A stretch of 37,026 nt of DNA from Minisyncoccota bacterium (GCA_040900015.1 JBBDZS010000001.1:1-37026), one strand, 5' to 3'. Shown: positions 3,440-36,038, counted from the first letter of the stretch. Translations and numbers: made by a program. The notes: generated from the sequence alone by a model not told the origin.

Positions 3440-3979
3440 TTAAATCAACCTATCAAGTAACGGAAACTCTTTATACGGCTGATTATAATAATTAGAACCC
3501 ATATGCCCTTCATGTAAAACAATCTGAATTCCTCCAAGTTTATCAAACATAATTCGTCCCTGTTTATCATCACAAGTCCAAGGATCATTGTCTGAATTAA
3601 TAAAAATTAATTCTTTACATTTACCTTGTATTTCAGTCCAATTAAAATCTTCAGTATTCTTTTCAGCATTTGGAGTCATTCGTAAGGCCTTTGCATATCC
3701 AGAAACCATAATTGCTTGTGTAATGGGAGTTTTAATATTCTCTAATATGCTTAAGATTAATTGTGCTCCAGCGGAATGTCCGATCAAAACTGTTTCTTCA
3801 TTAAATTTTCCATTCTCTAAAACAAAAGAAAGCCAATCTTTTAGGTTCGGGGTTTCAGCATTTGGAAGTTGAGGAAGCCATACCTCAAAACCTTTTTGTT
3901 CTAACTTTTCTTTAATATATGGAAACCAGAAATCAGTATTTTTGTCACCTGTACCATGGAGTATAATCGCATTTTTCAT
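3440..3979 (-). CDS. Alpha/beta serine hydrolase, YdeN/RBBP9-like
   Basis: 179 aa. ILHG near the N-terminus, nucleophile elbow GHSAG and a late HxGH segment (LHEGHMG). The minus-strand sequence TGgTAAACT lies 6 nt upstream of the ATG. Confidence 0.75.
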   Translation of the reverse strand: MKNAIILHGTGDKNTDFWFPYIKEKLEQKGFEVWLPQLPNAETPNLKDWLSFVLENGKFNEETVLIGHSAGAQLILSILENIKTPITQAIMVSGYAKALRMTPNAEKNTEDFNWTEIQGKCKELIFINSDNDPWTCDDKQGRIMFDKLGGIQIVLHEGHMGSNYYNQPYKEFPLLDRLI

Positions 3980-9454: not shown

Positions 9455-11596
9455 TTGAACAAGAAAATTACAAGAGAATTTCTTGATATTTTTAACATAA
9501 ACAAGTCCAAGTATCTTTTTTGGTTCTTTCTGATTGCCTGTTTGTATTTTATTTTAGGCTTGATGGGTCTTTTGTCGGACTCCGTTTCGGGTTTTACTTC
9601 TTTTATTTGGGCACCTACCGGCATATCCATCGCGCTTCTTTTTCTCTCTGGTTTGCGTTTCGCTCCGGCTTTGTTTTTGGGTGCGGTATTGATCAATCTC
9701 TCAATTGGGGCCTCTCTTTTTGTCGCCTTTAGCGTCGGACTAGGAAATATGTTGGAAGCGATCATTGCGGTTATGTTTCTTAGAAAATTTTCTTTCAACC
9801 CGTCGCTTTCCCGGATTCAGGATGTAATAATTTTAGTCATTCCCTCTATACTCTTCAGTACATTTGTGGCCTCTATTATAGGAGTAGCAGCACTTTCTTT
9901 TGGGGGAATTATTTCCCCGGAGAACTATGTTAATACCTGGGTCGCTTGGTGGGTGAGAGACACGATGGGAGCACTCGTTTTTGCCCCCGCGGTACTGGTT
10001 TGGTTTAGGCCGATAAAGGAAATAATAAACACAATACTTACTTGGGCGAAAAAAATGGAGGTGCTTAGCGCATTTCTACTTCTCATTCTTATTAATTTTG
10101 TGGTTTTCTTCTCAGTATCTGGTGATTTCTGGACCAACCATTCTTTTGCTTACCTAATATTTATTCCGCTCATATGGATCGCTCTTAGAATGGGCCAAAA
10201 AGGTTCAGTAACCGCTATTTTCATCACATCCATAATTGCTATATATAGTACGGCTACTGGGAGGGGCCCATTTATCGAGGAAACGCTCGGACAGGGATTG
10301 ATAACTCTGTATATATTCATGGGCACAGTTTCGCTCACGATGATGACTCTTGCAGCCACGGTTTCGGAAAAAATCACAGCCCTGGAAACTCTGAAAATAG
10401 AGGGCAAAAAACTTACCCAGGAAAAAGCCAGAACGGACGCTGTTTTTCTTTCTATCGGCGACGGTTTAGTAGTCACCGATAGGGAAGGCAGAATCACAAT
10501 GATCAACAAGGCCTTTGAACACTTGCTCGGATGGACCAAGGAGGAAGCTCTTGGAAAAGTTTTTGTTGATATTGTTCCAAAGGAAGATGAAAAGGGTGTT
10601 CGCATAATGAATGAAGATCGGACCACTCACAAGACACTTTCTGGCAACAAAACAGAAGTTTCTGGACCACACCAGATTCATTATCTTGTTCGCAAAGATG
10701 GGACTAGGTTCCCAGTCAGCATGACATCAAACGCAGTGCACGATGGCAATATGGAGGGGGTAGTCCAAGTATTTTGGGACATTACAAAAGAAAAAGAAAT
10801 TGATACAGCTAAAACAGAATTTGTCTCTCTTGCCTCCCATCAATTGCGTACACCCGCCACCAATATGAAGTGGTTCCTAGAAATGCTTCTTTCTGGTGAG
10901 GTGGGGGCTCTAAACAAAAAGCAAAAAGAATATTTCGACGAAGTGTACAAAAATAATCAGCGAATGATCGGACTCATTAACACCATACTAAATGTTTCCC
11001 GCATCGAGCTTGGTATATTTGAAGTGACGCCTATACCTACTGATATGAAATCGCTCATTAGCGGGATACTAGATGAGCATCAATCCCTTATTAAGGAAAA
11101 AAGTCTAATGGTCAGAGAATCTTACGCAAGCGACCTCTCCACAATATTGATAGATCCGAAGCTCGTTCGGATTGTCATACACAACCTTATTTCCAATGCG
11201 GTGAAATATACCCCGCCAAAAGGCCGGATTGACCTTGATGTATATATCAAGAAACGGGAAGAGAATGTCAGCGGGCGTAAAATGAAAAAAGATAGCATAA
11301 TCGTAGCGGTCCATGATACTGGATATGGAATACCCGCGAACCAAGTCAAAAAAATATTTACCAGGCTCTTTCGAGCAGATAATGTTCGGCAAAAAGATAC
11401 TGACGGTACGGGCTTGGGCTTGTACTTGGCCCGGATGATCGCGGAACACACCAAAGGGGATTTGTGGTGTGAGTCCACGATTCGTAAAGGGAGCACTTTC
11501 TACTTGGCTATGCCCACAGAAGGAATGAAGAAAAAATCTGGATTGAAAGAAATCGCCGTAGGTTCAATAAAACAAAGGCGAAATAGGCATTATTAA
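9455..11596 (+). CDS. Sensor histidine kinase with an N-terminal multi-TM MASE1-like module, a PAS domain, HisKA and HATPase_c
   Basis: 713 aa. FIWAPTGISIALLF is MASE1-like. The PAS segment reads DAVFLSIGDGLVVTDREGRITMINKAFEHLLGW, the H-box is SHQLRTP, the N-box is NLISNAVKYT and the G-boxes are DTGYGIP and GTGLGLY. The start codon is a TTG lying 7 nt after TGtTATAAT. The first in-frame ATG would truncate TM1. Confidence 0.85.
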   Translation: MNKKITREFLDIFNINKSKYLFWFFLIACLYFILGLMGLLSDSVSGFTSFIWAPTGISIALLFLSGLRFAPALFLGAVLINLSIGASLFVAFSVGLGNMLEAIIAVMFLRKFSFNPSLSRIQDVIILVIPSILFSTFVASIIGVAALSFGGIISPENYVNTWVAWWVRDTMGALVFAPAVLVWFRPIKEIINTILTWAKKMEVLSAFLLLILINFVVFFSVSGDFWTNHSFAYLIFIPLIWIALRMGQKGSVTAIFITSIIAIYSTATGRGPFIEETLGQGLITLYIFMGTVSLTMMTLAATVSEKITALETLKIEGKKLTQEKARTDAVFLSIGDGLVVTDREGRITMINKAFEHLLGWTKEEALGKVFVDIVPKEDEKGVRIMNEDRTTHKTLSGNKTEVSGPHQIHYLVRKDGTRFPVSMTSNAVHDGNMEGVVQVFWDITKEKEIDTAKTEFVSLASHQLRTPATNMKWFLEMLLSGEVGALNKKQKEYFDEVYKNNQRMIGLINTILNVSRIELGIFEVTPIPTDMKSLISGILDEHQSLIKEKSLMVRESYASDLSTILIDPKLVRIVIHNLISNAVKYTPPKGRIDLDVYIKKREENVSGRKMKKDSIIVAVHDTGYGIPANQVKKIFTRLFRADNVRQKDTDGTGLGLYLARMIAEHTKGDLWCESTIRKGSTFYLAMPTEGMKKKSGLKEIAVGSIKQRRNRHY

Positions 11597-11612
11597 ATCA
11601 TTATTAAAAATA

Positions 11613-11641
11613 TTTGATTTTTAATTTACAAGGTATTATAA
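11613..11641 (+). promoter_or_regulatory. Sigma-70-like promoter (TTGATT - 17 nt - TATAAA) for the response regulator
   Basis: Hexamers at 11613-11618 and 11636-11641. The ATG is 10 nt downstream. Confidence 0.45.
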
Positions 11642-11651
11642 TTGGTAAGTT

Positions 11652-12056
11652 ATGGATATGAGTATAAAAAAGAAAAAAGGGCACTCAATCGCGATTATAG
11701 AAGACGAAGCTTCTCAAAGGAAGGCGCTTTCGGAGAAGTTTGCCCGGGAAGGGTTCAAGGTTTTTGAAGCTAAGGACGGGGGTGAGGGACTGAAGCTTGT
11801 CCTCAAGGAGCGTCCTGACATAATACTGCTTGATATTATGATGCCGGACATAGACGGGCTCACTATGATGAAGAAACTCCGTAATTCCAATAAATGGGGC
11901 AAGACCGTGCCAGTAGTTCTTCTTACAAACCTAAGCGCGGATACTGACGATATAATAAAAAGAATTTCCGAAGATGAGCCATCTTACTATCTGCTTAAGG
12001 CCAACTGGTCAATCGGCGACGTGGTAGATAAAGTCAACGAGCGACTGTCTAGATAA
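11652..12056 (+). CDS. Stand-alone receiver-domain response regulator (CheY-like)
   Basis: 134 aa. IAIIEDE, phospho-acceptor context ILLDIMMPDIDG, LLTN and a conserved Lys (LLKA). There is no output domain. Confidence 0.9.
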   Translation: MDMSIKKKKGHSIAIIEDEASQRKALSEKFAREGFKVFEAKDGGEGLKLVLKERPDIILLDIMMPDIDGLTMMKKLRNSNKWGKTVPVVLLTNLSADTDDIIKRISEDEPSYYLLKANWSIGDVVDKVNERLSR

Positions 12057-28525: not shown

Positions 28526-29572
28526 ATGCTGGGCAATTTTACCTTTAAATTCGCACCTAAACCTTCTGCCACAAAAGAAGGTTTGCCACCAACTGAGGAA
28601 GGTCTGACTGAAAACTTGGAAGCTATATGGGCGAAAGAAAGAAAAGAAGGCGACCCAGAAATAAAGGTTTGTTTTGTTTTTGGTTATCATTACAACAATC
28701 TGGATCTAACAGAGCTTAAAAAAGAATACGCAGATGCAGACGTATTCATTCCTGAAAGTGCTGGTGCCGGAGATATCGGCGAAAAACTGTATCAAAATGT
28801 ATCTGCGGGTATTTGGTCGGTAGATGAGCTAGAAAAGAAAGTACCATACCTGGGAGATTTTACTTTTGCATTATTGCGAATGATTTATAACTCCAAAAAG
28901 TCTGTAGTAGTAGCCGATGTTCCTTCTAGGCATAGTTCTGTTGTGGAGCAAGAAGCAATTATAGAATTAAGCAAGAAGCAATTAGCTATCAAATCGCTAC
29001 AGGAGAAAGTATCTCTGATGAAAGAAAGCATCATTAGGCAAGTTGCAGCAAATACAGAAAGAGATAACTTTATAGCTCAACAGATACCCAGAAGACTTAG
29101 GAAGTTAATTGATGGTAATTCAAAAATAAGGACAAAGGCTTCACTTAAGGTTCTTGTTTTCCTTGGAATAATCCACACTCCTGTTTTTGCAAAAATGCAG
29201 AGGTCTAAAAAACCTGAAGTTTCAAGAAAATTTGAATTAGATGGGTCTAGCTTTTCCGTTTTCCAACATACTGACGAATTATTCAGAAGAATCATGGCTG
29301 GCCAGGTAGCTGATTCCATAAGTGCTGAGTTGTGGGAGAAAGCCGTATTTGGTTCTGAACTAGGTCATTACCTACTTGTTTATTATCGTTCCGAAATCAA
29401 AAAAATAAGCGGTAAAAAATTAATAGATATAGTACGCAAGATTCCAGAGTCTTTTACGAGAGATGATATTAGAACCGTATATAATTCAGTTGAAAAGGGC
29501 GAGAATTTTATGCTAGCATTTTTGGGTGTTTGCAAGTCTAAAAATATCGATGTAAGTGGTTTGTTTAACTAA
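28526..29572 (+). CDS. Hypothetical protein, 348 aa, no family recognised
   Basis: A long ORF with native AT-rich composition and a leaderless-type promoter. I can name no diagnostic motif. FGYHY...DVFIPESAG is only faintly reminiscent of TraB/GumN/Tiki-type proteins. Confidence 0.6.
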   Translation: MLGNFTFKFAPKPSATKEGLPPTEEGLTENLEAIWAKERKEGDPEIKVCFVFGYHYNNLDLTELKKEYADADVFIPESAGAGDIGEKLYQNVSAGIWSVDELEKKVPYLGDFTFALLRMIYNSKKSVVVADVPSRHSSVVEQEAIIELSKKQLAIKSLQEKVSLMKESIIRQVAANTERDNFIAQQIPRRLRKLIDGNSKIRTKASLKVLVFLGIIHTPVFAKMQRSKKPEVSRKFELDGSSFSVFQHTDELFRRIMAGQVADSISAELWEKAVFGSELGHYLLVYYRSEIKKISGKKLIDIVRKIPESFTRDDIRTVYNSVEKGENFMLAFLGVCKSKNIDVSGLFN

Positions 29573-29611
29573 ATTCGATTTATATTTTTTATTACTTACT
29601 CAACTTCCCAT

Positions 29612-29651
29612 CTAAAACCAAAGAAGCCCCGAAGACCCCTTTGGGACCTTC
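29612..29651 (-). terminator. Strand-specific hairpin plus T-rich tail downstream of the zinc-ribbon ORF
   Basis: The minus-strand RNA would form GAAGGUCCC-AAA-GGGGUCUUC (9 bp, two G-U pairs), followed by GGGGCTTCTTTGGTTTT. On the plus strand the same positions would be A-C mismatches. Confidence 0.4.
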
Positions 29652-29670
29652 AGGACTCGTTGCGGTCCGC

Positions 29671-29901
29671 CTAGTGGCGGACACGATTGCTCCTGCACCC
29701 CCGCGCGAACCAGAGCGCGCGACCGATGCATTCGTCGCCGCAGTAATCCCCCGGATGTGGGGGCCTGCCGTCTCTCCCCGCATCGTCGGGTGGGAGCTCG
29801 TAGTAGAGGACTCCGGTAGGAATCCTCCCATCACACCACCTACACTTGAGTGGCTTTTCAGCCTTTTTCCAAGCGCTGGCTTTTGTTGCTTCGATTTGCA
29901 T
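29671..29901 (-). CDS. Small Cys4 zinc-ribbon protein (TRASH/FCS-like spacing), GC-rich island 3
   Basis: 76 aa with CRWC...x29...CGDEC. GGAGG lies 6 nt upstream of the ATG. A promoter-like element and a hairpin flank the ORF. Confidence 0.55.
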   Translation of the reverse strand: MQIEATKASAWKKAEKPLKCRWCDGRIPTGVLYYELPPDDAGRDGRPPHPGDYCGDECIGRALWFARGCRSNRVRH

Positions 29902-29918
29902 CCGACGCCTCCGAAATT

Positions 29919-29946
29919 ACTATATACCCATTTAGGATTTTTTCAA
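29919..29946 (-). promoter_or_regulatory. Promoter-like element on the minus strand (TTGAAA - 16 nt - TATAGT) for the zinc-ribbon ORF
   Basis: The reverse complement of 29941-29946 reads TTGAAA, and that of 29919-29924 reads TATAGT. Confidence 0.45.
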
Positions 29947-29973
29947 GAAAACAAAAACCCCGTTTTGGCGGGG
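29947..29973 (-). terminator. Intrinsic terminator of rpmB
   Basis: The minus strand reads CCCCG-CCAAAA-CGGGG followed by TTTTTGTTTTCTT, 15 nt after the rpmB stop codon. Confidence 0.7.
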
Positions 29974-29987
29974 CTCTTGGAGGTTAA

Positions 29988-30239
29988 TTATTTAGCCTGG
30001 ATCAGTCCAGCTTTAAGGAGAGTGACATAGGCGCCTCTTTTCTTCATCGTGCGCATGCCCCTAGTAGTTATTTCTATGTTGACGGTCTTTCCAAGTTCAG
30101 GAATAAAAACCTTCTTCTTTTGAAGATTTATATATTTTCGTTTCTTGCCGGTAGGGTTGAACTGAGTCGCACGAGTACGATTTGAGTATCCGCCTCCGAC
30201 GATCGAGCCCTTATTTGTAACTGCGCATCTTTTCGCCAT
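29988..30239 (-). CDS. rpmB: 50S ribosomal protein L28
   Basis: 83 aa. MAKRCAVTNKG...GGGYSNRTRATQFNPTGKKRKYINLQKKK is bL28-like. Confidence 0.9.
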   Translation of the reverse strand: MAKRCAVTNKGSIVGGGYSNRTRATQFNPTGKKRKYINLQKKKVFIPELGKTVNIEITTRGMRTMKKRGAYVTLLKAGLIQAK

Positions 30240-31085: not shown

Positions 31086-31511
31086 ATGCCAACAATTAAC
31101 CAATTAATAAAGAAAAGTCGGGTCAAGACCCACCGCAAATCCAAGACTGTGGCATTGGCGCGCGGGTTCAATGTGCTTCAGAACCGCCCCGTATTCTTTC
31201 CTGCGCCTTTCAAGAGAGGGGTTTGCACCAAGGTTTCCACCACCACACCAAAAAAGCCTAACTCTGCGCTTCGAAAGATTGCTCGGGTAAGACTTACCAA
31301 CGGCATGGAGGTGACTGCATATATTCCCGGAGAAGGACACAATTTACAAGAACACTCTGTGGTAATGCTCCGAGGAGGACGCGTGAAGGACTTGATCGGA
31401 GTCCGATATCACATCGTGCGTGGTGTGCTCGACACCCAAGGAGTGGAGAAACGAAGACAGGGCCGATCTTTATACGGAAACAAGAAGCCTAAGGCTGGAG
31501 CAAAGAAATAA
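31086..31511 (+). CDS. rpsL: 30S ribosomal protein S12
   Basis: Start trimmed to the ATG at 31086 ([10 protein letters not shown]...). [10 protein letters not shown] and the C-terminal RGVLDTQGV are uS12 hallmarks. Confidence 0.95.
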
Positions 31512-31521
31512 TTTATAAAAT

Positions 31522-31992
31522 ATGAGACGCAAAGTAAAAAATAGAAATATAGTAGAACCGGATTTTATATACAACTCCCAAAAGTTGGAGAAATTTATCA
31601 ATTACATTATGTGGTCCGGCAAGAAGGAAACATCTCGCAAGGTCATGTACGCTGCACTCGACACTATCAAAGAAAAAACAGGCAACCCCAATCCTTTGGA
31701 AGTTTTCGATTTAGCTATGAAAAACGCCGGTCCGATGACCGAAGTTCGCTCCAAGAGAATCGGAGGCGCCAACTATCAGGTGCCTCGCGAAGTGCGCCCC
31801 GAGCGCAGGCTCGCTCTTGCTATGCGTTGGATTCGCGATGCCTCTCGAGGAGGCAAGGGCAAGCCTATGCACATCAAGCTCGCCGATGAACTTATCGCCG
31901 CTTCCAAGAACGAAGGCTCGGCAATCAAAAAGAAAGAAGATACTCACAAGATGGCCGAAGCCAACAAAGCCTTCGCCCACTTTGCTTGGTAG
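31522..31992 (+). CDS. rpsG: 30S ribosomal protein S7
   Basis: 156 aa. GKKETSRKVMYAAL, RIGGANYQVPREV and the C-terminal AFAHFAW. Confidence 0.95.
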   Translation: MRRKVKNRNIVEPDFIYNSQKLEKFINYIMWSGKKETSRKVMYAALDTIKEKTGNPNPLEVFDLAMKNAGPMTEVRSKRIGGANYQVPREVRPERRLALAMRWIRDASRGGKGKPMHIKLADELIAASKNEGSAIKKKEDTHKMAEANKAFAHFAW

Positions 31993-32037
31993 GGTTCGCT
32001 CACTGCTTTTGCAACTTTTATAATTAAAACACATTTT

Positions 32038-32067
32038 TACACATATACGCTATAGCGTATATGTGTA
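32038..32067. repeat. Perfect 30 bp palindrome (P1) immediately upstream of the Cas2-like ORF promoter
   Basis: TACACATATACGCTA|TAGCGTATATGTGTA. It ends 4 nt before TGaTATAAT. Confidence 0.9.
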
Positions 32068-32071
32068 TCTT

Positions 32072-32080
32072 TGATATAAT
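32072..32080 (+). promoter_or_regulatory. Extended -10 promoter TGaTATAAT; the ATG lies 6 nt downstream
   Basis: TG at 32072-32073, TATAAT at 32075-32080, ATG at 32087. Confidence 0.55.
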
Positions 32081-32086
32081 GTTTTT

Positions 32087-32473
32087 ATGAGGAAGAAGAC
32101 ATTTTACTATAAAGGCATTAAGGTAAATGCTTTTGGTCTACCGATATTATCTGAGAATAAAAAACGTCTAAAGAGAAAAAACCGCAAAAGAAATTTTTAT
32201 CATACTGCTTTTTCTTCGTCATTTAGCAAAGACTCTCCTAAAAATCTTATTTTAATGTACGATGTAGTAGAAGCTAAAAAGAAAGAAAGAGATTGGTTTC
32301 GCCGGCAGTTGAAAAATTTTAATTACATAATGATTCAGAGAAGCGTTTGGGTCGGCCCATCGCCTTTGCCAAAGGAGTTTTTGGATTATGTAAAGGAAAT
32401 TGGCTTACAAAGACACATAAAGACTTTCAAACTAGCCAAGCCGTACACAGGTAAAGAAAGTGTATTTAAATAA
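32087..32473 (+). CDS. Cas2-like / PaaX C-terminal-like ferredoxin-fold protein with a basic N-terminal extension (solo, no cas1 and no array)
   Basis: 128 aa. LILMYDVVEAKKKERDWFRRQLKNFNYIMIQRSVWVGPSPLP follows the beta-alpha-beta pattern (hydrophobic-YD-I/V ... R ... Q-x-SVW/F) that I associate with Cas2 and PaaX-C domains. The assignment comes from pattern memory only. Confidence 0.45.
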   Translation: MRKKTFYYKGIKVNAFGLPILSENKKRLKRKNRKRNFYHTAFSSSFSKDSPKNLILMYDVVEAKKKERDWFRRQLKNFNYIMIQRSVWVGPSPLPKEFLDYVKEIGLQRHIKTFKLAKPYTGKESVFK

Positions 32474-32478
32474 TATTT

Positions 32479-32506
32479 ACATATTTACGCTATCGCGCAT
32501 ATATGT
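32479..32506. repeat. Imperfect 28 bp palindrome (P2), a degenerate copy of P1, 5 nt after the Cas2-like ORF stop codon
   Basis: ACATATTTACGCTATCGCGCATATATGT. 11 of 14 arm positions pair. It shares ACATAT..TACGCTAT..GCG..ATAT.TGT with P1. Confidence 0.75.
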
Positions 32507-32580
32507 TATGTGAACAACCTAACTTGCCAATAGGTATTGGAGATATATACTTTAAGTATTATAAGTTAAATAATATTTTT

Positions 32581-32724
32581 ATGGCTAAAAGCGTAGATGA
32601 ATGCAGAAGAGAAATTCAACATTGGACAAGTGAATTGGACAAAGCTCAAAGAGAATTGAAATGGTGGACAGATGAGCTAGGTAAGGCAATCAGAGAGGAA
32701 AGTGATAGAACAAAAAATAAGTAG
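32581..32724 (+). CDS. 47 aa coiled-coil mini-protein with an internal tandem repeat
   Basis: Start trimmed to the ATG at 32581 (MAKSVDECRREIQHWTSELDKAQRELKWWTDELGKAIREESDRTKNK). The repeat units are HWTSELDKAQRE and WWTDELGKAIRE. Whether it is truly coding is uncertain. Confidence 0.35.
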   Translation: MAKSVDECRREIQHWTSELDKAQRELKWWTDELGKAIREESDRTKNK

Positions 32725-32757
32725 TATTATTAAGTTTTTAATTTAATCAATAAATTT

Positions 32758-33114
32758 ATGTCAATGGAAAATAATATGTCATCTGGCGACAGGAAACCAG
32801 GGCCAACCCCTGAACAGATAAAAGCACACGAAGAGATTGAAGCAAAAAAAGAGCGAAGGGAGTTGGAAGTGAAAACATATATAGATGAGATTGTTGCCTC
32901 CTTTTTAGAAGATAGTCCAGATGCAACAATAGACGATTTAAAGAGGGAAATTATTTATCAGAGAGAACTAGCGAGGGAAGCGGCTAATTATTTGTCCAAC
33001 AAACATCATACGGAAGTTGGTATGAAGCCAAAGAAATTAGTTGATTTCAAGGCTGGTCAAGATACCAGGAGCCCACATGATTGGATGAGTATTCCTTGGA
33101 ATAAAGGACACTAG
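32758..33114 (+). CDS. Hypothetical protein, 118 aa, no family recognised
   Basis: An ORF in an AT-rich cassette, charged and helical. The alternative start codons at residues 3 and 7 are equally possible. Confidence 0.45.
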   Translation: MSMENNMSSGDRKPGPTPEQIKAHEEIEAKKERRELEVKTYIDEIVASFLEDSPDATIDDLKREIIYQRELAREAANYLSNKHHTEVGMKPKKLVDFKAGQDTRSPHDWMSIPWNKGH

Positions 33115-33268
33115 TTTTTTGGCTAGCTAGGCAAGACTTAGCAAGTTAGTTTTAGTGCTTGCAATTCCGAAGCTTTAGCGTAGGACTGTGCATAACTCAT
33201 CCTTGCCAAGCCCTATCGGAGGGGGGTACACTTTGGGTATTATTAAATATAATTTATTTTAAAATATT

Positions 33269-33808
33269 ATGAGTACAGGAAATCCCAACTTTGATGAGCA
33301 AAATCCAGGTAGTGGAAAGCCAGAAAAAGTGGGACTCGAAGTTGATTATCGTAAGATATTCGATCATGAGCGTTCCAGAATGGATAGAAAATATCCTAAT
33401 TGTAATTTTGTTCCCGGCTCTCTAGAGGTTGTCGAAATTCACGATCGAGCGACTAAAAGAGCAGTGCAAGAAGTATTGGAAAACATGATTTGGGACGGAG
33501 AAATTAAAATATTGAGTTGGGGAAATATTGGAGAAGCTAGAGACAATAATAAAGATGAGGGAAGAAGAGAAGAAATAATAGAAACTCTTGCCTTTGGATA
33601 TACAAATGCTTTGGTTCATAATGGAGGTTTGACAATAACTTTAAGCAAAATGTTTCCTGAACTTTCTGAAACAGAAGCACAACAACTAGCGATTGATTTT
33701 AAAAAAATTCTAGATAGGGTTTCAGAACTAATCCCATCGGCACACTGGGAAGGCAGAATCGAAATTAAAACTCAAGGCGACAAGTTGTCGTTTTCAGCAA
33801 TTAAATAA
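33269..33808 (+). CDS. Hypothetical protein, 179 aa, no family recognised
   Basis: The last ORF of the cassette, followed by a hairpin plus T6. Confidence 0.5.
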   Translation: MSTGNPNFDEQNPGSGKPEKVGLEVDYRKIFDHERSRMDRKYPNCNFVPGSLEVVEIHDRATKRAVQEVLENMIWDGEIKILSWGNIGEARDNNKDEGRREEIIETLAFGYTNALVHNGGLTITLSKMFPELSETEAQQLAIDFKKILDRVSELIPSAHWEGRIEIKTQGDKLSFSAIK

Positions 33809-33818
33809 AAGTATTTAA

Positions 33819-33847
33819 TTGCAATTAAAAGGTTTTTAGTATATATT
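33819..33847 (+). promoter_or_regulatory. Promoter-like element TTGCAA - 17 nt - TATATT upstream of fusA
   Basis: Hexamers at 33819-33824 and 33842-33847. The -35 lies inside the perfect palindrome TTAATTGCAATTAA (33815-33828). Confidence 0.45.
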
Positions 33848-33852
33848 GTTCT

Positions 33853-33873
33853 GAGCGCATTTGGCGCTTTTTT
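33853..33873 (+). terminator. Hairpin plus T6 (terminator of the cassette, or a 5' stem-loop of the fusA leader)
   Basis: GAGCGC-atttg-GCGCTT followed by TTTT. It begins about 6 nt after the -10 element above. Confidence 0.55.
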
Positions 33874-33890
33874 ATTACCTAATCAAACAT

Positions 33891-36038
33891 ATGGAACGAG
33901 ATTATCCACTAGAGAAAGTTAGAAATTTTGGAATTATTGCGCATATTGATGCGGGCAAGACCACCACGACCGAGCGGGTGCTTTTTTATACTGGAGTTTC
34001 TCATAAAATAGGTGAGGTGCACGATGGTGAGACCACTACCGACTGGATGGAGCAGGAGCGCGAACGAGGTATCACGATCACTTCCGCTGCGGTGACTTGT
34101 TTCTGGACGCCAACATATGACCTTAAGAACAAAGCGCTCAAACATCGTTTTAATATTATTGATACTCCCGGACACATCGACTTTACCGTAGAGGTGAAGC
34201 GTTCTTTGCGAGTGCTCGACGGCGCAGTTGTCGTATTCGATGGGGTGGCCGGAGTGGAACCGCAGTCAGAGACTAATTGGAGATACGCGGACGAGGCCAA
34301 AGTTCCTCGCATATGTTTCATCAACAAACTCGACCGAACAGGAGCATCTTTCGAACATTCTTACGCGACCATTCTGGATAGATTGAGCAAGAGGGCTGTG
34401 CGCGTGCAAATTCCCATCGGGCTTGAGGAAAATTTCGAAGGTGTAGTTGACCTCCTAAAAATGAAAGCCTACTACTTTGAAGGTGAAATGGGCAATCAAG
34501 TTGTTGAAAAAGAAATTCCGGAAAACTTGAAAGCGGATGCTGAGAAATTTCACTCCGAGCTTGTGGAGAAAATAGTCGAGACCGACGACGCGATGATGAC
34601 TGAATATTTGGAAGGCATTGTCCCTAATCTCGAAGTACTCAAAAAGACTTTGCGTAAGGCTGTAATTGAAAATACCATTTTCCCAGTATTTGCTGGGAGC
34701 GCCCTTAAGAACAAGGGAGTTCAGCTCGTGCTCGACGCAGTCGTGGACTATCTACCCGCTCCGACGGATATTCCAGCTATCACCGGAATCAATGCTAACA
34801 CCGAAGAGCCAGAGGACAGACATGCATCTGATTCTGAGCCTTTTTCTGCACTTGCTTTTAAGATTGCGACCGACCCATTCGTCGGGCAAATCATCTTTTT
34901 CCGGGTTTACTCTGGACGACTAACAGCCGGAAGTTATGTTTACAATCCTCGCACTAGGAATAAGGAAAGAATTGGGCGCATACTGCGAATGCATGCCAAT
35001 GACCGCGAAGAAGTGAAAGAAGTTTTTGCTGGAGAAATTGCAGCTGCGGTGGGACTCAAGGACACTATCACTTCCGACACTCTTTGCGATGAAAACAACC
35101 CTATCATCTTGGATCGAATCGTCTTCCCTGAACCAGTCATCTCTCTCCGTATCGAGCCGAAGACCAAGGCCGACCAGGAAAAAATGGGTATGGCGCTCAA
35201 TCGCCTTGCGCAGGAAGATCCTACTTTCAAAGTTACAACAGATCAGGAGACGGGCGAAACTATTATTGCCGGTATGGGAGAATTGCATCTAGAAATAATT
35301 GTGGATCGAATGAAGAGAGAGTTTGCCGTAGAGGCGAACGTTGGCAAACCTCAGGTGGCATATCGCGAGACTATCAATGGCAGTAGCGAAGCCGAGGGCA
35401 AGTACATCAAGCAATCTGGAGGGCGTGGAAACTACGGCCACGTCAAGATCAAGGTCAGGCCGATGGAAATGCTTACCAAAGAAGAAATCGAAGATCTACC
35501 GAAGAACACCAAGCGTGCTCCCGGCTTCGAATTCGTCAATACTATCAAAGGTGGAGTCATTCCTCAGGAATATATTCCTGCCTGTGAAAAAGGATTTAAG
35601 GAAGGCCTCGACCGAGGTATTCTGGCTGGATTTAAAATGGTCAATGTTTCGGTGGAGCTCTGGGACGGAAGCTATCACGAAGTGGACTCCAACGAAATGG
35701 CATTCAAAATCGCAGCATCTATGGCTATCCAGGATGCTTGCCGTCGTGCGAACCCTGTCATCCTCGAGCCTATGATGAAAGTAGAAGTCGTCACTCCGGA
35801 CAAGTTTATGGGCGATGTCACCGGCAACCTGTCCTCCAAGCGAGGACTGATCGAAGGCATGGAAGATCGGGGTATGAACAAAGTGGTGAAGGCGATAGTG
35901 CCTCTGTCCGAAATGTTCGGATACATGACCGGCCTGCGCTCTATGACCGAAGGTCGCGCATCATTCACTATGGAATTCTTCCGCTACGACATAGTTCCAC
36001 AGAATGTAGCCGAAACTATTATCTCTGCAAGGAAATAA
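33891..36038 (+). CDS. fusA: Translation elongation factor G
   Basis: Start trimmed to the ATG at 33891 ([35 protein letters not shown]). DTPGHIDF and NKLDR are present, and all five domains are recognisable. The ORF track start at 33861 is a TTG that lies inside the hairpin. Confidence 0.95.

Follow-up and report, generated by a model that had tools for sequence, protein, structure and literature searches.

A palindrome-bracketed gene for a Cas2/PaaX-like protein at the variable rpsG-fusA junction of Candidatus Nomurabacteria

The DNA stretch analysed here in full length (37,026 nucleotides, GCA_040900015.1 JBBDZS010000001.1:1-37026; the window) is a chromosome segment of a tiny groundwater bacterium of the Candidatus Nomurabacteria (Paceibacteria, Candidate Phyla Radiation, CPR). 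Its elongation factor G (EF-G) is 90-91% identical to EF-G of Candidatus Nomurabacteria and Patescibacteria metagenome-assembled genomes. Between rpsG and the EF-G gene fusA lies a spacer of 1898 bp with a GC content of 33-37%, that of the flanks being 45-47%. A sequence-only reading had interpreted this spacer as one cassette of four open reading frames (ORF1 to ORF4) that had colonised, or been recruited into, the str operon. According to our best reading, the spacer is a composite and not a single cassette: it combines a conserved unit, formed by ORF1 and the two palindromes P1 and P2 that bracket it, with variable lineage-specific small genes, here ORF2-3 and ORF4. All features named in the sequence-only reading, i.e., the palindromes, the -10 sequence, ORF1 to ORF4, a gap between ORF3 and ORF4, and a hairpin followed by six T residues (T6), were recovered in place. 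The ORF1 unit and the boundary genes are as follows:

31086-31511, plus strand: rpsL, identified by Pfam.
31522-31992, plus strand: rpsG (ribosomal protein S7), the upstream boundary gene (PF00177 at 2.6e-56).
32038-32067, no strand: P1, a perfect 30-bp palindrome (TACACATATACGCTA joined to TAGCGTATATGTGTA) found by repeat search, a putative operator covering the -35 position of the ORF1 promoter.
32072-32080, plus strand: extended -10 sequence TGATATAAT, ending 6 nt before the ORF1 ATG; its TATAAT-like hexamer is conserved in most of 77 loci.
32087-32473, plus strand: ORF1, 128 aa, isoelectric point 10.4 (PF20803 PaaX_M at 3.5e-13, PF09827 Cas2 at 1.2e-6).
32479-32506, no strand: P2, the second and imperfect palindrome copy (ACATATTTACGCTATCGCGCATATATGT), beginning 6 nt past the ORF1 stop and recognised by its direct-repeat match to P1 (82% over 34 nt).
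33891-36038, plus strand: fusA (EF-G), the downstream boundary gene, with five EF-G/GTP_EFTU domains.

For comparison, 80 fusA loci were taken from GTDB species representatives, and S12, S7, EF-G and the four ORFs were mapped onto each of them; a metagenome scan contributed 80 additional loci, and in total 170+ related loci were compared. The window fusA product is 62-91% identical to those of the 80 Patescibacteria loci. In most of these 80 loci rpsG is directly followed by fusA. In the closest relatives from the genome collection, L001 and L004, rpsG and fusA are separated by 92 bp and 12 bp, respectively, and the ORF1 unit is absent at that site, while in other Paceibacteria unrelated genes take up 0.5-2.4 kb at the junction. 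Due to this varied content among relatives, we regard the rpsG-fusA junction as a turnover hotspot, and the notion that its content is accessory and variable is borne out. As read by eye from translated ORFs, the junction genes of L002 (2868-4180), which belongs to the closest relatives with an EF-G identity of 91%, resemble those for a nucleotidyltransferase, HicB, HicA, and a DUF2283 protein, and those of L026 and L032 are pilin-like. An apparent intein or insertion in fusA of L001 and others was discarded, as the long matches derive from the downstream tuf gene hitting the GTPase domain of the query.

According to contig look-ups, many Nomurabacteria carry ORF1 in the gap that separates rpsG from fusA. 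In the 354-kb contig L085, ORF1 is the sole gene in the gap, whereas in L087, L171, and L174 other small ORFs surround it. L171 keeps the whole synteny of the window, with L28, M50 peptidase, rpsL, rpsG, ORF1, fusA, dihydroorotate dehydrogenase (DHOD), and phosphoribosyltransferase genes. In agreement with the sequence-only reading, a gene with a DHO_dh match lies directly 3' of fusA in the window, and L171 shows the same order. Among the metagenome loci, S7 and EF-G genes both flank ORF1 in 11 cases and one of the two does so in three more on short contigs; at least 14 distinct related loci carry ORF1 at the junction. Other contexts are given by L081, with the closest ORF1 (83%) situated beside infC/smpB, by L173, with ORF1 beside rpe/transketolase, and by L162, with ORF1 preceding two genes whose sequences read like gatC and gatA. 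A relocation between L081 and the window could not be mapped, ORF1 being the sole shared gene.

The neighbours of ORF1 behave differently. ORF2, ORF3, and ORF4 occur in none of the 80 fusA loci (0/80) and have no homologue in the 170+ related loci; 137 of the 159 clusters of small ORFs beside ORF1 have a single member, and none of the clusters is a general companion of ORF1. Thus, the four families do not co-occur, and the single four-gene cassette has to be given up: only ORF1 with P1 and P2 recurs, next to neighbours that differ by locus.

Within the window, the palindrome core is present in P1 and P2 only, with 0 matches expected by chance, and a search of related loci without ORF1, about 0.95 Mb in total, gave no further site. 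An alignment of the ORF1 flanks across 77 distinct Paceibacteria loci revealed a common architecture, consisting of a 28-30-bp palindrome, 5-8 nt, a TATAAT-like hexamer, 6-7 nt, the ATG, ORF1 (about 125 aa), and the palindrome copy. The centre of P1 is located 34-35 bp upstream of the ORF1 ATG in 49 out of 63 loci; this places P1 over the -35 position of the promoter of ORF1. Judged from the spacing only, the ORF1 transcript would be leaderless and would start at or next to the ATG. P1 is 82-96% identical to the window copy in all 13 compared relatives (13/13), although the synonymous sites of ORF1 are saturated. For P2, the identity to the window copy amounts to 93-100% in 10 of the 13 relatives and to 50-79% in the three most divergent ones.

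P1 and P2 of one locus share a lineage-specific type, and both change together between lineages: ACACATATACGCTATAGCG..., CCCCATATACGCCATGGCG..., CATTTCAACCATGGTTG..., ATATATGGCCCATGGGCC..., and CCCCAAGTTCGCCATGGCGAA... represent arm and core types that are altered jointly in the two copies. The types comprise ACAC or ACAT arms with the core CGCTATAGCG, CCCC arms with the core CGCCATGGCG, CAACCATGGTTG, GGCCCATGGGCC, and AAGTTCGCC arms. Across 74 loci, half-site positions 5, 6, 8, 12, and 14 are invariant or nearly so. As read from the sequence, the P2 arms show the mismatches T·T, A·C, and T·C but no G·U pair, and this imperfect form is conserved clade-wide.

Palindromes of this kind might act as nucleic-acid structures or bind another factor, with P1 serving as a terminator or insulator hairpin, P2 as a 3' stabiliser or terminator, and ORF1 fulfilling an unrelated function. 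As RNA, P1 would fold into a very stable hairpin (-18.8 kcal/mol, z = -6.6), which is also picked up by a terminator scan, and the arms remain complementary via compensatory changes. P2 is always found close behind the ORF1 stop, but it does not yield a significant fold (z = -1.15), and its clade-wide, non-wobble mismatches are hardly compatible with a role as a hairpin. Similarly, most palindrome copies are not followed by a T-run, and P1 precedes the presumed transcription start in every context, with constant spacing to the -10 sequence. Pairing does not account for the conservation of the sequence itself over deep divergence, and simple terminators have no reason to share one lineage-specific type within a locus. 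We therefore consider a purely structural role, or one for a foreign factor, improbable. Due to the constraint at the sequence level, the concerted change of P1 and P2, and the imperfect P2, we presume that the DNA sequence is recognised by a symmetric factor and does not serve as a plain hairpin. ORF1, which is always linked to the sites, is the candidate for this factor.

An association scan between bases and residues is in line with this assignment. The outer half-site bases (1-4 and 7) track residues 26-37 of the ORF1 linker, the inner bases (9-11) track E62, K65, and D69 on helix 1, and position 13 tracks R85, a geometrically sensible and thus suggestive pattern. In the loci with a GGCCC core, D69 is replaced by N in three out of three cases; residue 65 is R, not K, in loci with GGCCC and CAACC cores. 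In the single locus with AAGTTCGCC arms, the basic linker of ORF1 is rewritten.

Beyond the two bracketing copies, a third palindrome of the locus' own type was seen in L162 (7470-7540), approximately 70 bp upstream of a free-standing gene that is LAGLIDADG-like by sequence, and in L098 (2245), where it comes behind two genes located past P2, one with an SLT-like motif and one for a membrane protein. Such copies hint at a small regulon. Palindromes of a different type occur as well: a perfect 20-bp palindrome (ATCTACGCCATGGCGTAGAT) lies inside the annotated dihydrofolate reductase gene of L085 (1785-1812), without an equivalent in the dihydrofolate reductase gene of the window, and an orphan palindrome is situated between convergent genes in L139:2452. 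Both may be targets of a second ORF1 paralogue located elsewhere in those genomes.

Concerning the protein, the sequence-only reading had described ORF1 as Cas2/PaaX-C-like, which the domain matches confirm with the specification that the domain is the central one of PaaX (PaaX_M). The score against PF20803, the PaaX central Cas2-like domain, is 49.9 bits (cut-off 24, residues 55-118), compared to 29.0 bits for PF09827 (cut-off 23.8) and 25.7 for TIGR01573 (cut-off 24.5), both barely over, and 13.1 for the full-length PaaX model TIGR02277 (cut-off 264.55). The family comprises more than 2245 homologues, many of them 80-85% identical, and many bear the database name "Cas2". In an AlphaFold2 (AF2) model based on 41 homologues, a beta-hairpin (residues 6-13) and a low-confidence basic linker (14-50) precede a ferredoxin domain of beta-alpha-beta-beta-alpha-beta layout (52-114). 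The first 50 residues include 15 K/R. Fold matches in the PDB were obtained for Cas2 proteins (with type II-A proteins on top), SSO8090, VapD, and PaaX, all of them weak (E 0.07 or worse), with an Lrp protein among these weak matches; profile-sequence matches to the PDB are also marginal. Y58-D59, R68-D69-W70, R72-R73, and a W88-VGPSPL motif are among the invariant positions of the 41-sequence alignment. D59 is located at the end of strand 1 and presumably corresponds to the catalytic Asp of Cas2. Via its Cas2/PaaX_M-like ferredoxin domain, ORF1 would form a dimer.

ORF1 could thus be an active Cas2/VapD-type nuclease, either a toxin or a site-specific endonuclease, with the palindromes as substrates or self-control sites of a selfish, addiction, or defence element. 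This was the leading idea of the sequence-only reading, and the Cas2 and TIGR01573 scores just over their cut-offs, the invariant Y58-D59 at the end of strand 1, and the presence of Cas2 and VapD among the fold matches would suit it. The same applies to the absence of the unit from the site in L001 and L004, to the different context of the nearest ORF1 (L081, 83%), and to the toxin-antitoxin-like appearance, by sequence, of the L002 junction genes. However, no conserved neighbour qualifies as antitoxin or effector, and neither cas1, another cas gene, nor a CRISPR array was found in the window or near those ORF1 homologues whose annotated surroundings were examined. For ORF1, PADLOC returned only weak Cas2 models, and nothing was obtained for ORF2-4 with PADLOC and PHROGs. 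An addiction or defence module is not supported by these results. Together with the history of the gene described below, which is unlike that of typical mobile toxins, they leave a nuclease role an unlikely one, if slightly more plausible than that of plain nucleic-acid structures.

Selection on ORF1 was estimated between the window and 13 relatives, most of which carry ORF1 at the same site. Synonymous divergence (dS) is saturated (1.9 or more, or not computable), while nonsynonymous divergence (dN) ranges from 0.10 to 0.37; in the three pairs where it was computable, dN/dS is 0.05-0.09. ORF1 is under strong purifying selection. Across 13 co-located loci, ORF1 and EF-G distances are correlated (r = 0.72), with ORF1 evolving about 2.8 times faster. 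ORF1 relatives were found neither in IMG/VR viral contigs nor in PLSDB plasmids or INPHARED phages. Target-site duplications were not detected, since the longest word shared by the flanks has a mean length of 5.27 nt compared to 5.24 nt in the null model; the 7-bp repeat GGATTAC of L085 does not exceed what chance would produce. Due to the lack of viral and plasmid relatives and of target duplications, and to the divergence congruent with EF-G, the ORF1 unit appears as a long-standing, mostly vertically inherited chromosomal gene with at least one relocation (L081). The proposal of a recent colonisation of the str operon is contradicted by the same observations, by the at least 14 loci with ORF1 at this site, and by the purifying selection. 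It is this clade-stable position, with divergence tracking EF-G under long-term purifying selection and absence from viral contigs, plasmids, and phages, that is difficult to reconcile with a mobile toxin.

A cryptic mobile or recombination element, with P1 and P2 as recombination ends (compare IS200/IS605, REP/RAYT, and integron attC) and the ORFans as captured cargo, is a further explanation to be considered. Two palindrome copies bracket ORF1 in every context, a third one occasionally brackets further genes (L098, L162), the flanking genes are hypervariable, and several genomic contexts exist, as such an element would predict. On the other hand, it would have to do without transposase, integrase, or HUH motif and without target duplications, with only one unit in each locus and with about 0.95 Mb of related DNA free of further palindromes; it would also have to be absent from viral and plasmid collections and to diverge in step with EF-G. 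We regard this explanation as very improbable. The sequence-only reading was right in stating that the window is devoid of integrase, transposase, and CRISPR array: a Pfam survey of the 36 other window ORFs returned housekeeping families only, without integrase, transposase, or cas1, and no CRISPR-like repeat array was found in the 37 kb.

Taken together, we give about even chances to the assumption that ORF1 is a dimeric Cas2-fold DNA-binding protein which represses its own leaderless promoter via P1 and ends or insulates the transcript, or modulates the downstream promoter, via P2. DNA binding and the direction of regulation are here inferred from the conservation and arrangement of the sites. 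In detail, ORF1 as a small and very basic dimer would bind both 28-30-bp palindromes that flank its gene as double-stranded DNA. Bound to P1 at the -35 position, it would repress its own transcription; bound to P2, just past the stop codon, it may end or insulate the transcript, modulate the next downstream promoter, or both. Of the alternative between a nuclease-based module and a translation-linked regulatory system left by the sequence-only reading, the regulatory part comes closest to this putative role, whereas a link to translation is given by position only.

Several observations weigh against ORF1 as a regulator of this kind. A recognisable DNA-binding domain, either winged helix-turn-helix (wHTH) or ribbon-helix-helix (RHH), was not detected by domain searches, and the confidence of the AF2 model is moderate (predicted local distance difference test, pLDDT, of 76 overall and 55-58 in the linker). 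The invariant D59 fits an enzyme as well as a regulator, and an enzymatic role of ORF1 is conceivable. Due to the fact that each deviant palindrome type essentially represents one clade, the co-variation of protein and DNA is confounded by phylogeny. The distance of P2 from the ORF1 stop is variable, its centre being found from -8 to +44 nt relative to that stop in the 77 loci. DNA looping was tested as well, and the P1-P2 distance shows no helical phasing across loci. Finally, third palindrome copies are rare across loci, while a well-conserved regulator would be expected to control more than itself.

The remaining part of the spacer contains the lineage-specific small genes and promoter-like sites:

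32516-32580, plus strand: degenerate copy of the islet promoter (see below) upstream of ORF2, with TTGCCA (32524-32529), a 16-nt spacer, and TATACT (32546-32551), supported by direct repeats D2 and D9 with 33202-33260 and by 10/12 matches in a promoter scan.
32581-32724, plus strand: ORF2, 47 aa, presumably a coiled-coil peptide, containing an internal repeat; its codon score of about 0 is marginally above those of the other five frames.
32758-33114, plus strand: ORF3, 118 aa, acidic, ORFan; codon score 0.17, best frame.
33188-33262, plus strand: putative poly-G-spacer promoter and 5' leader within the 154-nt gap, with TTGCCA (33203-33208), an 18-nt spacer ending in GGAGGGGGG, and TACACT (33227-33232), identified with an nhmmer profile.
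33269-33808, plus strand: ORF4, 179 aa, acidic, member of a very small family; codon score 0.19.
33819-33875, plus strand: putative fusA promoter (TTGCAA, 17-nt spacer, TATATT) followed by the 5' hairpin GAGCGCATTTGGCGCT and T6, from promoter scan and folding.

Coding potential was scored in six frames by codon log-odds trained on the long genes of the window. ORF1, ORF3, and ORF4 score highest in their own frame at levels typical of known genes, whereas ORF2 is marginal and its coding status uncertain. An alternative start that extends ORF2 to 73 aa is situated inside P2 and upstream of the presumed promoter. The 154-nt gap between ORF3 and ORF4 is non-coding in all six frames (6/6), has no Rfam match, and lacks a significant RNA fold (z = -0.29); Rfam yielded no match across 31900-34000 even at E = 1.

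ORF2 has no family match above threshold, and ORF3 retrieved only itself from a search of 5.8 billion proteins. For ORF4, a word-indexed search likewise returned only the query, while a search of 1.84 billion representatives added three distant relatives (P0123-P0125, 92-166 aa, E 5e-6 to 2e-5). These relatives reside in other variable contexts, not beside ORF1 units, and one of them adjoins a gene pair that is RelE/ParE-like by sequence. A single-sequence AF2 model of ORF4 reached a pLDDT of 53. The 2088-aa protein P0122 with BRC-like repeats, which gave eight weak repeat matches, was treated as spurious. Its repeats match the N-terminal motif NF.PGS.E.E.IHDRANKRAV.QAL of the ORF4 family (window 33311-33470, residues 15-67) with a summed E of 1e-18, probably an artefact of repeat amplification. 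ORF2-4 are lineage-specific near-ORFans, of which ORF2 and ORF4 possess promoter-like sites of their own.

These sites belong to a recurrent islet promoter, with the consensus GTGCATAACTCATCC, TTGCCA or TTGACA, about 9 nt, TCG with G7-G10, TAYACT, and a GGGTATTATTA-like leader. The nhmmer profile yielded 16 distinct hits, all of them in ORF1-bearing loci and usually just downstream of P2, and none in L001-L080 (about 0.95 Mb of fusA loci without ORF1). In the window, a good copy with an interrupted G tract (GGAGGGGGG) precedes ORF4 and the degenerate one precedes ORF2. Counted by ourselves in six measurable loci, the P2 centre lies approximately 66-69 or 84-87 bp upstream of the presumed start of the next promoter, a range into which the window fits if the degenerate ORF2 promoter is used.

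G7-G10 tracts with spacers of 16-19 nt, differing between species, occur in at least 13 loci; examples are found at 33218-33226 in the window and at positions 3796 and 5439 of L087, 4448 of L092, 4443 of L097, 4437 of L103, 4472 of L112, and 4468 of L171. Within species, tract length did not vary among independent contigs of three groups (L081-84, L087/88/90/94, and L171/172), which are consensus assemblies. Since the lengths are equal among contigs of the same species, phase variation is an idea and not a finding; the G tract may mark a contingency promoter or may be a functional promoter element. In our reading, the ORF1 unit of Nomurabacteria is the fixed point of a variable islet located at the rpsG-fusA boundary, where lineage-specific small genes come and go, many of them driven by the G7-G10-spacer promoter found only beside ORF1. 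The most far-reaching version, in which a solo Cas2-fold protein has turned into a sequence-specific DNA binder without a classical domain, brackets its own gene with co-evolving palindromes, and acts as gatekeeper of a hypervariable ORFan islet with poly-G-spacer promoters in the str region, is, in our estimation, rather doubtful.

The hairpin with T6 (33853-33875), which the sequence-only reading had counted among the cassette elements, folds with -8.3 kcal/mol (z = -2.1) and is located downstream of the conserved fusA promoter. The same promoter-hairpin arrangement occurs in the cassette-free L001 and in L085, L092, L099, L103, L106, L113, and L125 (33819-33890 in the window, 5915-6000 in L001, 5450-5505 in L085); therefore it belongs to fusA and not to a cassette. 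Situated between the presumed transcription start and the fusA start codon, the conserved GC-rich hairpin resembles a 5' attenuator or an element stabilising the EF-G mRNA. In several relatives a hairpin and T-run directly follow rpsG. Co-expression of the spacer genes by read-through from the rpsL promoter is thus unneeded and doubtful, given that ORF1, ORF2, ORF4, and fusA have promoter-like sites of their own. As fusA possesses its own promoter and leader hairpin, the rpsG-fusA junction would be a transcription-unit boundary in the Nomurabacteria clade, which would explain why insertions are tolerated there.

Elsewhere in the window, three regions deserve mention. A 348-aa ORF without Pfam family is located at 28526-29572. 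In the adjacent region (29573-30030), upstream of rpmB (L28, minus strand), about 400 bp contain only an implausible TTG-start ORF (29641-30030) and no RNA at Rfam gathering thresholds. The genes at 9455-12056 specify a MASE1-PAS histidine kinase along with a receiver-domain protein that stands alone, which is rather elaborate sensory equipment for a CPR genome of reduced size.

With these results the four-gene cassette dissolves into an ordinary variable islet, whereas the palindrome-bracketed solo Cas2-like gene is real, undescribed, and common in Paceibacteria; no description of the ORF1 family or of the module was found in the literature searched. Thousands of database entries name this family "CRISPR-associated endonuclease Cas2" or "PaaX". 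The evidence says neither, which affects CRISPR censuses of CPR bacteria. If ORF1 binds its flanking palindromes, a Cas2-fold core with a basic arm would read specific DNA, which bears on the relationship between PaaX and Cas2. One protein and a 28-bp site that have diversified into several specificity types constitute a compact system, tractable in vitro, from organisms that are mostly uncultivable. The str "operon" would be split in Nomurabacteria, with a promoter and leader of its own for fusA, and the split is a hotspot of gene turnover. Should the gatekeeper function hold true, ORF1 would represent a previously undescribed class of regulators, possibly tied to PaaX/Cas2 ancestry, and could mark a contingency locus in episymbiotic CPR bacteria.

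Among known systems, phase-variable promoters with a homopolymeric spacer tract occur in Neisseria, Haemophilus, and Mycoplasma. The islet promoter resembles them in its G7-G10 run between -35 and -10 and its spacer of 16-19 nt, but its tract lengths are identical within species and the tract of the window is interrupted. From IS200/IS605 and REP/RAYT elements the ORF1 unit differs by the lack of an HUH/Y1 transposase, of multi-copy palindromes, and of target duplications. With VapD, a Cas2-like endoribonuclease toxin (PDB 3ui3), it has in common a stand-alone small Cas2-fold protein outside CRISPR and a weak fold match; in contrast to VapD, a conserved partner gene is missing, while the chromosomal position is stable, the gene is under purifying selection, and the flanking palindromes are conserved in sequence. 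The likeness to CRISPR Cas2 consists in the ferredoxin fold, the Asp at the end of strand 1, PF09827 and TIGR01573 scores over cut-off, and weak fold matches (E about 0.07). However, the examined loci lack cas1 and arrays, ORF1 carries a basic N-terminal extension of 50 residues, and its family is Paceibacteria-specific. The family has probably been misannotated with the database name "CRISPR-associated endonuclease Cas2".

The closest parallels are found among transcription factors. As in autoregulated ones, P1 occupies a fixed position over the promoter of the adjacent gene, ending 5-8 nt upstream of the -10 sequence. By analogy, the architecture presumed for ORF1 resembles that of NikR and Lrp/AsnC, small autoregulators that contact DNA with an N-terminal element, dimerise through a ferredoxin-like core, and have a long palindromic operator across their own promoter. 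ORF1 differs from them in that it lacks RHH and HTH motifs as well as detectable sequence homology to these families, and nothing points to a role in ligand binding. The repressor PaaX acts by binding to a palindromic operator in the promoters that it controls. Its central domain is the best Pfam match of ORF1, PaaX (PDB 8a39) is among the fold matches, and the putative operator would play a similar role. In contrast to PaaX, the 128-aa ORF1 gave no hits for an N-terminal winged helix or a C-terminal PaaX domain, its score against TIGR02277 is far below cut-off, a copy of the putative operator is present on either side of the gene, and there is no phenylacetate pathway context. Since the PaaX winged helix is missing, any DNA binding by ORF1 would need the Cas2-like core and the basic N-terminal arm. 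All in all, ORF1 would seem to work most like a small autorepressor, and in terms of homology it is closest to the PaaX central domain.

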